DNA of 64,000 bases, from the NCBI GenBank assembly GCA_043799105.1, contig JAZDOB010000012.1:1620-65619 (forward strand). The letters are read 5' to 3'. The notes under the pieces are model-generated. The model saw only the letters and a list, made by a program, of their open reading frames with translations. It was not told the origin of the DNA and searched no databases. The DNA comes from Candidatus Zambryskiibacteriota bacterium (GTDB lineage Bacteria > Patescibacteriota > Minisyncoccia > Phycocordibacterales > WO2-35-19). Both the position numbers and the translations under genes were made by a program. Shown piece after piece: positions 37,000 through 61,696 of this stretch (within the stretch, counting starts at the first letter, position 1; every line of letters begins with the position of its first letter).

Positions 37000-37347
37000 T
37001 CCGGAGTAGCTCAGCGGTAGAGCGGCCGCCTGTATCGGTTAATGCAGCTTCCCAAAGAAATTTGGGATGAAAAACGAGGTGAATTCGGGGGAACCCAAAC
37101 TTTAAAAAGTGGGCAATCCCGAGCCAAGTCCAGCACCACTTTTGATTTTTAAAATTAGAAGTTAAAAGTGGTGCTGGGAAGGTGTAGAGACTATCCTTAA
37201 CGGAGTAGGACGTGATTGCGAAGCAATTTTACGTTCGAAGCCCCTCGCCCCTAAATCGAAAGACATGGGGATGATATAGTCCATGCTTCTAGTAATAGGA
37301 GATTAAATGTAAGCGGTTGGTCGTAGGTTCGATCCCTACCTCCGGAG
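37000..37347 (+). tRNA. trnN: tRNA-Asn (GUU) interrupted by a group I intron
   Basis: Exons 37000..37033 and 37310..37347 join to UCCGGAGUAGCUCAGCGGUAGAGCGGCCGCCUGU|UAAGCGGUUGGUCGUAGGUUCGAUCCCUACCUCCGGAG. This is a 72-nt cloverleaf with anticodon loop CUGUUAA. Confidence 0.85.
37034..37309 (+). ncRNA. group I intron (IC3-like), 276 nt, no ORF
   Basis: P1 pairs exon CUGU plus intron AU with AUGCAG (37042..37047), with U-G at the splice site. The intron ends in G. The core strings GUGAAUUCGGGGGAACCCAAAC, CCCGAGCCAAGUCC and GGGAAGGUGUAGAGACUAUCC match the Azoarcus and Anabaena tRNA introns as I recall them. Confidence 0.8.
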
Positions 37348-52698: not shown

Positions 52699-53199
52699 AT
52701 GAGTTTGGTAATGGAAATATTGGAAAGCCTTTGGAATACACACCTTTACTACAAAGGGGTTAAAGTAAATTTGCTTGGGGTGCCGGTGCTTTGGGAAGAC
52801 AAAAAGGATTGTTCAAAAAATTCATTTAAAAGCACACTCTCAAGATTAAAAAGCAAAGGATTTATAGAAATAAAATCAGGTAAATGGTTTTTGACAAAAG
52901 CGGGAAAAGAATATTTTGAAAATAAGAGAAGACTCTCAACAAAATTTGCCTCTTCTTTTCCACTCAATTCTCCCAAAAATCTCTTGCTGATGTTTGACAT
53001 CCCGGAATCTAAAAAAGCCGAGAGGGAATGGTTAAGATGGCACTTGCGCGAATTTCAATATTTTATGATTCAAAAAAGCGTGTGGGTTGGACCAAGCCCG
53101 TTACCCAAAAAGTTTAAAGATCACGCGAAAAATATCGGTTTAAACGATTTTATAAAAACTTTCAAGTTGGCAAAACCTTACGGAATTATTAAAAGTTAA
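52699..53199 (+). CDS. winged-helix + PaaX-C/Cas2-like fold regulator (inferred)
   Basis: The N-terminus STLSRLKSKGFIEIKSGKWFLTKAGKEYF looks like a wHTH wing. The C-terminus LLLMFDIPESKKAEREWLRWHLREFQYFMIQKSVWVGP fits the PaaX C-terminal / Cas2-like pattern. Confidence 0.5.
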   Translation: MSLVMEILESLWNTHLYYKGVKVNLLGVPVLWEDKKDCSKNSFKSTLSRLKSKGFIEIKSGKWFLTKAGKEYFENKRRLSTKFASSFPLNSPKNLLLMFDIPESKKAEREWLRWHLREFQYFMIQKSVWVGPSPLPKKFKDHAKNIGLNDFIKTFKLAKPYGIIKS

Positions 53200-53328: not shown

Positions 53329-53493
53329 TTATTTCTTTGTAACCTTCTTGAGGATTTCGTAAATTGTTGAAAGAAAGAAAAACACAGTACTCAATACTGC
53401 TACCAATCCTGCGCCGTTTCCAGAGAGCGAAATGGTAGCGAGACCAGCCAGCAAACTTGCACCCATTAGAAAAACAAAAATAGTTTTTGTCAC
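53329..53493 (-). CDS. possible small membrane protein (54 aa, GTG start)
   Basis: GGAGA lies 5 nt upstream of the GTG. Translation: VTKTIFVFLMGASLLAGLATISLSGNGAGLVAVLSTVFFFLSTIYEILKKVTKK. Confidence 0.3.
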   Translation of the reverse strand: MTKTIFVFLMGASLLAGLATISLSGNGAGLVAVLSTVFFFLSTIYEILKKVTKK

Positions 53494-53562
53494 GGCCGTC
53501 TCCTTACGGTTAGTTTCTTAGTAAATTATAGCAAATACACAGATTTTGTCAAGTGTGGTGAG

Positions 53563-58637: not shown

Positions 58638-60359
58638 ATGATTGGCAGGATTCGTCTCATATCCGTTATCATAATCGTGATGGCGCTCGTTACGTCTGTT
58701 CGTTTGTATTTTGTACAGATAGTGCACGGGGAATCTTTTGCTTCCGATGCCGAGAGACAAAATATAAACGAAAATACCACGCTTTATGATAGAGGAGAAA
58801 TTTATTTTGAAAGCAAAGCCGGAGAAATTATACCAGCGGCTATTTCCCGGTCTGGTTTTACTGTTGCCATAAATCCGAAAATTATAAAAGATCCGGAGGA
58901 AATTTATAAAAACTTGAGCCAAGTTTTGGTTTTGGACAAAGAGACATTCATAGCCAAAGCCTCAAAAAAAGATGATCCCTATGAAGAAATCGCGGAACAT
59001 CTTAATGCTGAAACTGCCGACAAAATAAAAGCCCTTAATATTTATGGTGTTAACATATCTACCGACAAATGGCGGTTTTATCCTGGGGGCAGACTAGCTT
59101 CCAATGTTATAGGTTTTGTGGCTTATAGCGGTAATGAACTGGCCGGCCGTTACGGGCTTGAAAGATATTATGAAGATATTCTAAAAAAGGATCCCTCAAA
59201 AGCTTATAACAATTTTTTCGCCGAATTTTTTTCAAATGTTAAGGAATCTCTGAATGAATATCCGCAAGAAGAGGGCAACATCATCACCTCTATCGAACCG
59301 TCAACACAACTTTTCCTTGAGAATGAACTTAAAAATGTCAGAGAAAAATGGGGAAGTGACCAGGCCGGAGGAATTATAATAAATCCAATGAACGGAGAAA
59401 TTATTGCTATGGCTTGGAATCCTTCTTTTGACCTCAATAATTTTAAGGAAAGTGGCGTTAATTTCTTTAACAATCCTCTTGTGGAAAATAGGTATGAGAT
59501 GGGCTCCATTATAAAATCTTTGACTATGGCTTCAGGCATTGATTCGGGCGTAGTCTCGGCTGCCAGCACCTACTATGATGCCGGATTTTTGGTTTTGAAT
59601 AATAAGCGTATCTCAAATTATGACAATAAAGGAAGAGGCACAGTCAATATGCAAGAAGTCTTAAATCAATCTCTAAACACCGGCGCCGCTTATGTGGCTA
59701 TGAAAATGGGCAACGAAAAATTTTCGGAATATATGAAAAATTTTAACGTTGGCACTGAGACCGGTATTGATCTGCCAAATGAGGGGCTTGGTCTTATAAG
59801 CAATTTGGACAGCAAGAGAGACATTGAAATTGCTACCGCTTCCTATGGACAGGGTGTTGCTTTTACCCCCATTGCCACCGTTAGGGCGCTTTCCGCTTTG
59901 GCTAACGGCGGAACACTTATCACTCCCCACGTAGTCAAAAAGATAGAATATCAAAATGGTCTCTCAAAAAAAATATCTTTTGCTCCGGAAAAACAGGTAA
60001 TAAAAAAAGAAACTTCGGAAGAAATTACTAGAATGCTTGTTAATGTTGTCGACAAAGCTTTGCGCGGAGGTACGGCCAAAGTTCCAGGGTTTAGTGTCGC
60101 GGCAAAAACAGGTACTGCCCAAATGACGAACGAAGGCACAGCCGGTTATGTGGAAGGGAAGTACCTGCATTCTTTCTTCGGCTACTTTCCCGCCTACAAC
60201 CCGAAGTTTTTGGTTTTTCTCTTTCATATTTATCCCAAAAATGTCCGCTATGCTTCCGAAACTTTGACCGACCCCTTCCTTGATATCACAAAATTTCTCA
60301 TAAACTACTACCAGATCCCTCCCGACAGGCCGGAAGATACTCTAACCAAAACTCAATAA
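58638..60359 (+). CDS. ftsI: penicillin-binding protein (FtsI/PBP3-like class B transpeptidase)
   Basis: SxxK (GSIIKS), SxN (QSLNTG) and KTGT (AAKTGTAQ). Confidence 0.9.
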   Translation: MIGRIRLISVIIIVMALVTSVRLYFVQIVHGESFASDAERQNINENTTLYDRGEIYFESKAGEIIPAAISRSGFTVAINPKIIKDPEEIYKNLSQVLVLDKETFIAKASKKDDPYEEIAEHLNAETADKIKALNIYGVNISTDKWRFYPGGRLASNVIGFVAYSGNELAGRYGLERYYEDILKKDPSKAYNNFFAEFFSNVKESLNEYPQEEGNIITSIEPSTQLFLENELKNVREKWGSDQAGGIIINPMNGEIIAMAWNPSFDLNNFKESGVNFFNNPLVENRYEMGSIIKSLTMASGIDSGVVSAASTYYDAGFLVLNNKRISNYDNKGRGTVNMQEVLNQSLNTGAAYVAMKMGNEKFSEYMKNFNVGTETGIDLPNEGLGLISNLDSKRDIEIATASYGQGVAFTPIATVRALSALANGGTLITPHVVKKIEYQNGLSKKISFAPEKQVIKKETSEEITRMLVNVVDKALRGGTAKVPGFSVAAKTGTAQMTNEGTAGYVEGKYLHSFFGYFPAYNPKFLVFLFHIYPKNVRYASETLTDPFLDITKFLINYYQIPPDRPEDTLTKTQ

Positions 60360-60412
60360 TTTGTGTTATATTTTATTTGCAAGGCTTGCCACGCGGAGCT
60401 TTAGCGAAGTAT

Positions 60413-60484
60413 GGCCTCATCGTCTAGCGGCTAGGACATTGCCTTCTCAAGGCAAGAACCGGGGTTCGATTCCCCGTGAGGTCA
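60413..60484 (+). tRNA. trnE: tRNA-Glu (CUC)
   Basis: GGCCUCA..GUCU-AGCGGCUA-GGAC..UUGCC-UUCUCAA-GGCAA..CGGGG-UUCGAUU-CCCCG-UGAGGUC-A. Confidence 0.9.
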
Positions 60485-60491
60485 CATTTTC

Positions 60492-60519
60492 TTGACAATT
60501 TTTGCTACTCTGCTATACT
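60492..60519 (+). promoter_or_regulatory. near-consensus sigma70 promoter TTGACA-16-TGcTATACT
   Basis: The -35 box is at 60492..60497 and the -10 at 60514..60519, directly after tRNA-Glu. Confidence 0.65.
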
Positions 60520-60525
60520 AAACTT

Positions 60526-60708
60526 TGTAGTAAAGAGCGAGCAGTTCTCCGGCTGGATGGCGTTGAATTATGAACAACCGGAGAGGCTTAGGCTTAAAAC
60601 CCACTCGGCGATGCCGAGAGTTGGGTCCCTCTAATGAGGAGGCCGAAGATGAAAGCTTGCTCTCGGGCCCGCCTGTTGCCAGTGTGCGCAGGTGGGCCCT
60701 TTTGTTTT
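60526..60708 (+). ncRNA. candidate structured small RNA, class unassigned
   Basis: A locally GC-rich stretch between the strong promoter and a terminator (gggcccgcctg..caggtgggccc plus ttttgttttt). Four or five hand-foldable hairpins. Only start-poor overlapping ORFs on both strands. Confidence 0.45.
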
Positions 60709-60807
60709 TACATTTCGCTATACACACTTCCTATTTCATTTCAAAAAATATCGTTGTACAATTCGGGCAAGGTCGTTTTATAAACATTAAAAATTAATTA
60801 TAATTTT

Positions 60808-61017
60808 ATGCAAAAAGTAGCACATTGGCTCCTTATAATCGGAGGTCTCAACTGGCTTTTGTTTGCTCTTTTGAGCAAAGATATTTTTGGGCTCTTGGGT
60901 ATGGATATGGGAGGTTGGTTGCCACGCATAGTCTATATCCTTGTCGGTCTTTCAGCCCTTTTGGCCTTGAAACCAAAATCTTCCGCTCCTATCGCTCCTT
61001 CTGCTCCTCAGATGTAA
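60808..61017 (+). CDS. DUF378-family small membrane protein
   Basis: VAHWLLIIGGLNWLLFAL...IVYILVGLSAL is the typical DUF378 pattern. Confidence 0.7.
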   Translation: MQKVAHWLLIIGGLNWLLFALLSKDIFGLLGMDMGGWLPRIVYILVGLSALLALKPKSSAPIAPSAPQM

Positions 61018-61045
61018 GAAAAAAATCGGATTCTAACTCCCCAAA

Positions 61046-61072
61046 CCCCGCTTAATTTAAGCGGGGATTTTT
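61046..61072 (+). terminator. Rho-independent terminator
   Basis: ccccgcttaa-t-ttaagcgggg followed by attttt. Confidence 0.75.
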
Positions 61073-61135
61073 GGAGTACTTTGCACACTATTTTTTAAAA
61101 ACAAAAAAGCACTTTGATGATTTCTGTCAAATTAT

Positions 61136-61246
61136 TCTAACTCCCTAAATCCCTCTCAACCTAAGAGGGAATTTGTGGAAAAATGCTAATGCATTTTTCT
61201 TCCTTGAACCCCCCCTTAAATTAAGGGAGGGTTCGGGAGAGTTAGG
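61136..61246. repeat. Family A palindromic element (two hairpins), overlaps the 3' end of the DUF559 gene
   Basis: tctaactccctaaat-ccctctcaacctaagaggg-aatttgtgg ... cccccccttaaattaagggaggg-ttcgggagagttagg. Confidence 0.8.
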
Positions 61247-61605
61247 TTATTTATTTCTAACCTGATTTTTTCCAGCATCACTTCTGTATTATTCATCACT
61301 TCACTATTCCAAAACCTAATAATTTTGATATTTGAAGCCTGCAAAATTCTTTCTCTGTCTTTGTCATAGAGCATTGTTTCTTTTTCTATATGTTGACTTC
61401 CGTCAAGTTCAATCCCGAGCCTTATTTTTGGGCAATAAAAATCCAAAATATAACCGCTAACGCCATATTGGCGAAAAAATTTTAATCCGTGAAATTCTTT
61501 ATTGCGAAGAAATAGCCATAATTTTTCTTCAGCTTCGGTCTGTTTGGCTCTTAGTTCCTTTCTGCGTCCTTTAAGTGTTTTGTTGTTGAATATGAATTTA
61601 TTCAC
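61216..61605 (-). CDS. DUF559 (Vsr-like, PD-(D/E)XK superfamily) endonuclease domain protein
   Basis: EEKLWLFLRNKEFHGLKFFRQYGVSGYILDFYCPKIRLGIELDGSQH..DKDRERIL..IKIIRFWNSEV. Confidence 0.8.
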   Translation of the reverse strand: MNKFIFNNKTLKGRRKELRAKQTEAEEKLWLFLRNKEFHGLKFFRQYGVSGYILDFYCPKIRLGIELDGSQHIEKETMLYDKDRERILQASNIKIIRFWNSEVMNNTEVMLEKIRLEINNLTLPNPPLI

Positions 61606-61653
61606 GAAAAGATTATAACTCGTTTTTTACTAAAAAAGATAGGCGTAGCCTAT

Positions 61654-61696
61654 CCACAAATTCCCCCTTAACTTAAGGGGGATTTAGGGGGTTATG
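61654..61696. repeat. Family A half-element, inverted copy of 61136..61178
   Basis: ccacaaatt-cccccttaacttaaggggg-atttagggggttat is the reverse complement of the left half-element, with matching flanks. Confidence 0.8.

Follow-up and report, generated by a model that had tools for sequence, protein, structure and literature searches.

A lineage-specific structured RNA candidate with its own predicted promoter and terminator downstream of tRNA-Glu in a Zambryskibacteria-like genome

Introduction

What is encoded in the short, GC-rich interval that separates a tRNA-Glu gene from a DUF378 gene in a Candidatus Zambryskibacteria-like genome (Paceibacteria, CPR)? The interval (60492-60709, hereafter the element) lies in the window, by which we mean the whole 64-kb stretch of DNA analysed here, within the gene order lysS, mraZ, rsmH, ftsL-like, ftsI, tRNA-Glu(CUC), element, DUF378, DUF559; the FtsI-encoding gene occupies 58638-60359, and its product is 100% identical to a protein from an NCBI MAG named Candidatus Zambryskibacteria. 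A preliminary description of this DNA had proposed an unassigned structured RNA with its own promoter and terminator, and had suggested a 6S-type housekeeping RNA or a riboswitch for DUF378 as possible identities.

CPR/Patescibacteria have reduced genomes with little room for non-coding DNA, and we know of no experimentally characterised small RNAs from this group; literature searches likewise found none. Orphan bacterial small RNAs (sRNAs) of genomic islands and hot spots have genes of their own, each equipped with a sigma-70 promoter and an intrinsic terminator and frequently situated beside a tRNA gene. Here we examine the signals, predicted fold, distribution and genomic setting of the element and weigh the explanations that they allow.

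Results

A promoter and an intrinsic terminator bracket a GC-rich interval

The near-consensus promoter of the preliminary description stands, with 11 of 12 consensus positions and an upstream TG (Table 1). Only three sites scoring at least 11/12 occur on the two strands of the 64-kb window, the element's promoter among them, and sites of 11/12 with TG are expected by chance about 0.07 times over this length. Transcription is predicted to start at approximately 60526-60529. The interval is also, as described, more GC-rich than its surroundings, with a GC content of 0.59 in 60550-60699 relative to approximately 0.30-0.45 in the flanks and approximately 39% in the genome.

At its 3′ end the interval closes with the strong terminator recognized earlier, in which GGGCCCGCCUG (60665-60675) pairs with CAGGUGGGCCC (60689-60699) ahead of the U-tract UUUUGUUUUU (60700-60709). 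This hairpin reaches -28.3 kcal/mol on its own and forms independently of the body; an automated terminator scan missed it solely because its loop is longer than 8 nt. As in a stand-alone sRNA gene, the element's own promoter and intrinsic terminator thus bracket a short non-coding interval. These features, together with the absence of an Rfam match (below), fit the original call of an unassigned structured RNA with its own promoter and terminator.

Table 1. Coordinates of the element, its neighbours in the window and features of related loci (L numbers).
Feature	Position	Strand	Description
tRNA-Glu(CUC)	60413-60485	+	ARAGORN; Rfam tRNA 59.8 bits
Sigma-70-type promoter	60492-60519	+	TTGACA-16-TGcTATACT; 11/12, TG two bases 5′ of the -10 box
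Structured RNA body	60527-60664	+	~138 nt; predicted closed three-way junction P1/P2/P3, P3 bearing P3a and P3b
P1	60534-60542 with 60655-60663	+	9-bp long-range helix closing the body, AGAGCGAGC with GCUUGCUCU, including G60539.U60658
P2 hairpin	60545-60585	+	8-bp stem UUCUCCGG/CCGGAGAG; 25-nt A/U-rich apical loop 60553-60577, mostly unpaired
P3 three-way arm	60587-60648	+	Carries P3a and P3b
P3a long hairpin	60599-60626	+	CCCA-CUCGGC-GAU-GCCGAG-UGGG, GAU loop
P3b hairpin	60628-60639	+	CCUC-UAAU-GAGG
Single-stranded junction	60649-60654	+	AUGAAA, between P3 and P1
44-codon ORF	60649-60783	+	Starts at junction AUG 60649, 6 nt 3′ of GAGGAGG
Intrinsic terminator	60665-60709	+	11-bp GC-rich stem (one G.U pair), 13-nt loop, then UUUUGUUUUU
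Conserved block upstream of DUF378	60713-60763	+	Outside the element; marks the insertion's downstream edge; -10-like box
DUF378 gene	60808-61017	+	Pfam E = 1.2e-13
DUF559 gene	61216-61605	-	ORF list/Pfam
Palindromic repeat, four copies	61030-61075, 61134-61179, 61207-61240, 61653-61694		~45 nt (ATTCTAACTCCC..hairpin..)
Family A RNA	L001:7722-7895, L015:4578-4704	-	Directly after tRNA-Glu
Family B RNA	L013:7775-7905 (-), L050:11525-11658 (+), L027, L042, L048, L019, L044 (several copies)		
Family B RNA, further loci	L033, L002, L090, L052, L058, L059, L041		
Small hydrophobic ORFs	L010:7760-7925, L081:2329-2592	-	Variable slot between ftsI and tRNA-Glu/DUF378
Large serine recombinase-like ORF	L089:2690-4350	-	Translation read by eye; missing from source annotation

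The body is predicted to fold into a closed three-way junction

Minimum-energy (MFE) and centroid predictions alike give a closed three-way junction with a separate terminator hairpin, and the paired bases have a mean pairing probability of 0.91. The body alone reaches an MFE of -55.1 kcal/mol (z = -4.0) and the whole transcript -83.4 kcal/mol (z = -5.1), values that none of 200 shuffles equalled in either case. The most accessible part of the predicted fold is the apical loop of P2, where approximately 16 of the 25 bases have an unpaired probability of at least 0.9; the bases scoring lower take part in a weak inner 3-bp stem and two further pairs. The G.U pairs in P1, P2, P3 and the terminator favour the plus strand, since on the opposite strand each would become an A-C mismatch; the minus-strand fold shows a bulge where G60539.U60658 would be such a mismatch. 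Together with the promoter and the U-tract, these pairs fix the plus strand.

Of the four hairpins that had been drawn by hand, the first three reappear in the computed structure: UCUCCGG/CCGGAGA at 60546-60584 (one base away from the 60547 originally given), the hairpin drawn as accca..tgggt (CCCA..UGGG at 60599-60626), and cctc-taat-gagg at 60628-60639. The fourth, ccgaaga..tctcgg, does not, and in the minimum-energy fold the long-range helix P1 takes its place. The structure as predicted rests on one sequence.

The element matches no known RNA family

Searches with Rfam 15 at gathering thresholds gave no match in the element, and at E ≤ 10 with relaxed filters (521 nt) returned only the tRNA and noise, none of it in the element. 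The preliminary description had found no fit to SRP, tmRNA, RNase P or several riboswitch consensus sequences, and the cmscan search agrees, with none even at E ≤ 10. SRP RNA, RNase P RNA, tmRNA, 5S rRNA and Y RNA were rejected on the lack of a family-model match (Rfam, and for tmRNA also ARAGORN, which called none). Retron ncRNAs, omega/reRNA guides and type III antitoxins were set aside as well, with no reverse transcriptase, IscB/TnpB or repeat array adjoining, as judged from the ORF list and Pfam matches of the immediate neighbours.

The suggestion of a 6S-type RNA was not supported. The element and 6S RNA (RF00013 and related) are alike in size and promoter strength, and both have their 5′ and 3′ ends paired, but the element matches neither RF00013 nor the lineage-specific 6S families at gathering threshold or at E ≤ 10, and its predicted fold, a closed three-way junction, lacks the rod shape and central bubble of 6S RNA. 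It also differs in conservation, with no homologue in 84 related loci (approximately 13 kb searched per genome) and no copy at the syntenic site of relatives.

Elsewhere in the window, Rfam identified a group I intron (62.3 bits, 37044-37302) within 37000-37340 (+), in the anticodon loop of a tRNA; ARAGORN did not call the intron-split tRNA, and its splice sites are ambiguous. A separate unit at 53330-53552 (-) carries the only perfect sigma-70 promoter in the window (TTGACA-16-TGcTATAAT, 12/12); it drives a gene for a hydrophobic protein of approximately 50 aa, which has its own terminator and an AAGGAG sequence as ribosome-binding site.

No homologue is found in related genomes

No homologue of the element was found in 102 related or candidate loci. 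Neither nhmmer nor blastn detected one in 80 ftsI-anchored loci of GTDB species representatives, a single-sequence covariance model (R1) run against 84 sources matched the window only, and nhmmer, blastn and the covariance model together found none over approximately 0.96 Mb of related loci, corresponding to approximately 13 kb per genome. The related loci, whose collection for covariation analysis had been proposed earlier, therefore yielded no second sequence.

The nearest GTDB relatives by FtsI are Zambryskibacteria at no more than 86% identity, and the closest FtsI relatives in a collection of 5.8 billion proteins reach 85-89%; exact look-up of the window's FtsI and DUF378 proteins found neither on record. 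With the nearest FtsI in the databases only 89% identical, the species is effectively unsampled elsewhere. None of the closest FtsI relatives was found to carry the element: two of their contigs end at ftsI and the others have different content, and at the syntenic site no copy is present in relatives whose FtsI is 86-89% identical.

Broader collections gave the same answer. Used as a "spurious ORF" query, the concatenated six-frame translation had no match at E ≤ 10 among 5.8 billion proteins, and the minus-strand ORF spanning the whole element had none among 1.84 billion representatives. When JGI metagenomes were scanned with a 21-mer, four matches appeared, all due to chance and set in unrelated GC-rich or coding sequence; four viral pattern scans returned none or one chance match each, and blastn against phage and plasmid collections returned none. 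Within the window itself the element is not repeated, and its best antisense match (13 nt at 52744-52756, E = 0.19) is at chance level and includes bases that precede the predicted start of the transcript.

The element is an insertion or replacement between tRNA-Glu and a conserved block upstream of DUF378

Several relatives that keep the order ftsI, tRNA-Glu, DUF378 (L004, L008, L010, L027 and others) lack the element, and in these the counterpart of approximately 60708-60763 of the window follows the tRNA directly or within approximately 55 nt. The conserved block in this region (Table 1) is 86-93% identical over 27-52 nt to L004, L008 and L027, all without the element, and its -10-like box reads TACAAT in the window and TATAAT in the relatives. 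Since the block is shared by element-free relatives, the element is an insertion or replacement of approximately 220 nt upstream of it.

The element takes the place of the short tRNA terminator found in otherwise syntenic relatives. Relatives without the element have a terminator hairpin directly 3′ of tRNA-Glu, while tRNA-Glu(CUC) of the window, which ARAGORN confirms to lie directly upstream of the element, has no terminator of its own. Its transcripts would therefore run into the element and end at the element's terminator, which also has to serve the upstream tRNA. On the 5′ side of the tRNA gene, the window (60379-60412), L024 (8133-8165), L016 and L013 share a conserved leader of approximately 30 nt (..AGGCUUGCC.CGCGRAGCUUUAGCGAAGU..) that separates the mature 5′ end from the tRNA-Glu promoter; it is absent from L003, L004 and L009.

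The DUF378 gene lies, as first described, approximately 100 nt downstream on the same strand, and its Pfam match bears out the assignment. The idea of a DUF378 riboswitch was not supported: none of the DUF378 homologues examined is preceded by the element, across approximately 20 homologous loci that include 11 with other upstream neighbours, and the only signal in the DUF378-anchored loci, a 16-bit match inside a coding gene, is noise. Folding at seven transcript lengths showed the body and the terminator to be independent domains. There is no antiterminator, in that nothing competes for the 5′ strand of the terminator even when P1 is forbidden, and no known riboswitch class was matched (Rfam, E ≤ 10). 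The conserved block with its -10-like box sits 3′ of the element's terminator and 5′ of the DUF378 gene, which therefore seems to have its own predicted promoter. The element shares with leaders and riboswitches that sequester a Shine-Dalgarno (SD) sequence a multi-helix junction, a paired SD, a junction AUG and a terminator directly after the closing helix, but differs from them in being tied to no gene family, in having no competing structure or known class, and in being separated from DUF378 by the conserved block. On this evidence the element is most unlikely to be a riboswitch for the adjacent DUF378 gene.

A canonical SD-AUG motif lies inside the predicted RNA

Overlooked in the preliminary description, a canonical GAGGAGG-N6-AUG occurs inside the element at 60636-60651, and its SD-like GAGGAGG (60636-60642) is fully paired within P3b and P3 of the predicted fold. 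The two ORFs listed earlier, 60518-60727 (-) and 60570-60797 (+), both exist; the statement that ORFs here lack ribosome-binding context fails for the 44-codon ORF starting at 60649, although that ORF is probably not real. The terminator hairpin begins 14 nt after its AUG, the ORF ends 74 nt past the U-tract and 25 nt before the DUF378 start, and its second half corresponds to the conserved non-coding block upstream of DUF378. The 44-codon ORF has no Pfam match and no homologues, and neither does any frame of the element. A type I toxin mRNA or small membrane protein gene is a poor fit, the ORF not being contained upstream of the terminator.

In two of the chance metagenome matches (L085, L086) the element's 21-mer forms the ribosome-binding site and start codon of unrelated genes, and in L084 it spans a junction between two genes, from the stop codon of the first to the start of the second. 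The motif is most likely fortuitous or a relic of donor sequence, and it keeps alive two minor rivals, a translation-coupled attenuator and a truncated gene start.

The tRNA-Glu 3′ flank is hypervariable in the clade

Among relatives the tRNA-Glu gene occurs in either orientation, and its 3′ flank is hypervariable; in other lineages this flank carries unrelated structured RNAs, small ORFs or a serine recombinase-like ORF. Two such RNAs, here called family A and family B, recur across loci.

Family A consists of a terminator-less tRNA, a TTGCAA-17-CATAAT promoter preceded by TG, an RNA of approximately 130 nt and a strong terminator. Its multi-stem body is closed by a 10-bp helix, and the two copies (L001 and L015) are 77% identical with compensatory changes; a pseudoknot of CCACU with AGUGG is possible. 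The element thus resembles family A in its place beside a terminator-less tRNA-Glu, its own promoter, a closed body of approximately 130 nt and a terminator, but differs in its unrelated sequence and internal helix layout, and in orientation, as the tRNA and RNA of family A are inverted as a unit relative to the window and the flanking genes. Membership of the element in family A was rejected (local alignment z = -0.1 and 0.8; no nhmmer match).

Family B is a structured RNA of approximately 120 nt (UGUGAAG..CGAG..GGUCGCAAGUACUUAG..hairpin..UUGUGACCACA) without an Rfam match, whose covariance model (R2) contains 33 predicted pairs, 16 of them with compensatory changes, and gives 23 matches at E ≤ 1 in 15 loci. 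Its copies are located a short way 3′ of tRNA-Glu and, in L044, 3′ of tRNA-Ala genes. The copies in L002 and L059 are 85% identical, in genomes whose FtsI proteins share 86% and 53% identity with that of the window. R2 gives no match in the window, and the element was accordingly rejected as a member of family B.

Signs of mobility also occur at this flank. In relatives, stem-closed elements have a 3′ strand that copies the tRNA 3′ end, and L019 contains a direct duplicate of that end; the window has no duplicated tRNA 3′ end of this kind, which would be a signature of integration. The recombinase-like ORF of L089 (FtsI identity 87%) adjoins tRNA-Glu(CUC) and tRNA-Glu(UUC). The small hydrophobic ORFs of the variable slot include one reading MILKAVIISAVFLALLIVGLCYCVCKG.. 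with an GGAAGGAG ribosome-binding site. Downstream of DUF378, the DUF559 endonuclease-like gene is flanked by two copies of the palindromic repeat, which make up 42-nt inverted repeats with 86% complementarity; this gene is absent from several syntenic relatives, which suggests a small mobile cassette.

Discussion

The promoter, the stable predicted fold, the terminator and the status as an insertion at the tRNA-Glu flank characterise the element. The explanation that we favour, with about even confidence, is that 60492-60709 is a self-contained, lineage-specific (orphan) small non-coding RNA gene at an insertion-prone tRNA-Glu flank, acting in trans. The GC content of 59% in a genome of approximately 39%, the absence from every relative and the variable site suggest acquisition by insertion over inheritance. 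The RNA would be released as a discrete species of approximately 180 nt, whether initiated at its own promoter or cut out of a transcript shared with tRNA-Glu, and would also be made as a 3′ trailer of tRNA-Glu. It would act in trans, probably through the accessible 25-nt A/U-rich loop of P2, by loop-mediated base pairing or by protein binding, and the adjacent gene would not be regulated in cis. The element shares with island and hot-spot orphan sRNAs a promoter-RNA-terminator unit of approximately 180 nt, a stable fold, restriction to one lineage and a variable tRNA flank; it differs in a body more GC-rich and more compactly closed than in typical seed-pairing sRNAs, and in belonging to a CPR bacterium, a group from which we know of no characterised sRNA. 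An sRNA gene leaves the SD-AUG motif inside the RNA without explanation.

The main alternative, which we consider less likely, is that the element is a functionless or decaying remnant of inserted foreign DNA whose fold and signals were inherited from the donor and are not maintained. Such a remnant could be the beginning of a gene that has lost its body, with promoter, structured 5′ UTR, ribosome-binding site and initial codons, or the end of a mobile element formerly at the tRNA-Glu site. The element carries GAGGAGG-N6-AUG-AAA with a sequestered SD, as translational leaders do, and the identical 21-mer is a real ribosome-binding site and start codon in unrelated metagenome genes. A foreign fragment that was inserted recently and has no function would also be expected to show high GC and a strongly negative z-score. 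The 59% GC in a genome of approximately 39%, the absence from all relatives at the syntenic site and the insertion hot spot (serine recombinase-like ORF of L089, duplicated tRNA 3′ ends in several relatives, inverted repeats at DUF559) fit this explanation. However, no donor was found among 5.8 billion proteins (six frames) or 1.8 billion representatives (one ORF), nor any match in phages, plasmids or viral contigs; the window lacks a duplicated tRNA 3′ end; and promoter, fold and terminator are all intact, the last being needed by the tRNA. Given the reduced genomes of CPR bacteria, a unit of 220 nt whose promoter ranks among the best three in 64 kb is unlikely to be idle.

A further alternative is a cis-regulatory DUF378 leader, be it a riboswitch, a thermosensor or a translation-coupled attenuator in which opening of P3/P3b frees the SD and ribosomes starting at AUG 60649 melt the terminator, allowing read-through into DUF378. 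The shared strand, the 100-nt distance, the SD sequestered in a helix and an ORF that spans the terminator and stops 25 nt before DUF378 suit this arrangement, but we consider it improbable, as the element is missing at the approximately 20 homologous DUF378 loci examined, DUF378 seems to have its own promoter in the conserved -10-box block beyond the terminator, neither an RNA-only antiterminator nor a riboswitch class was found, and the ORF takes its C-terminal half from that conserved non-coding block. A housekeeping RNA (6S, SRP, Y-like or other) diverged beyond Rfam detection would account for the strong promoter, tRNA-like GC, size of approximately 180 nt and paired ends; it is a slim prospect in view of the lack of an Rfam match at E ≤ 10 with relaxed filters, a fold that is not rod-like with a central bubble, and the lack of any counterpart in relatives at 86-89% FtsI identity (0.96 Mb, approximately 13 kb per genome). 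We give least credence, and very little of it, to a small protein gene, be it for the hydrophobic 44-aa peptide that starts at AUG 60649 or for the product of a 69-75-aa ORF. Its attractions are a perfect SD at 6-nt spacing, a peptide with a basic N-terminus and hydrophobic core, strong promoters that here drive tiny membrane-protein genes (for example the 12/12 promoter at 53552 (-)) and the small hydrophobic ORF at the equivalent site of L010. Against these, the ORF crosses a -28 kcal/mol terminator with a U-tract, which begins 14 nt 3′ of the AUG, and its second half coincides with the conserved non-coding block preceding DUF378; no frame has a homologue or Pfam match, and the peptide is hydrophobic because the sequence is T-rich.

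Beyond the single locus, a wider and rather doubtful interpretation makes the tRNA-Glu(CUC) 3′ flank in Paceibacteria a dedicated landing site for structured RNAs that are unrelated, have transcription of their own and are installed and swapped time and again; the element would then be the one member sampled so far from a new functional RNA class. Its examples would be the element, family A and family B, the last being widely conserved, supported by covariation and also present after tRNA-Ala; site-specific recombinases may carry out the exchange. If this were true, the class of the element could be, for example, a defence, anti-defence or host-interaction factor of episymbiotic bacteria.

Read as an orphan sRNA gene, the element is an unclassified example of a familiar kind of gene and a candidate from a single genome. 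The tRNA-Glu flank in which it lies carries different structured RNAs in different lineages, with family B clearly conserved, and so offers a concrete place to hunt for RNA function in these bacteria.
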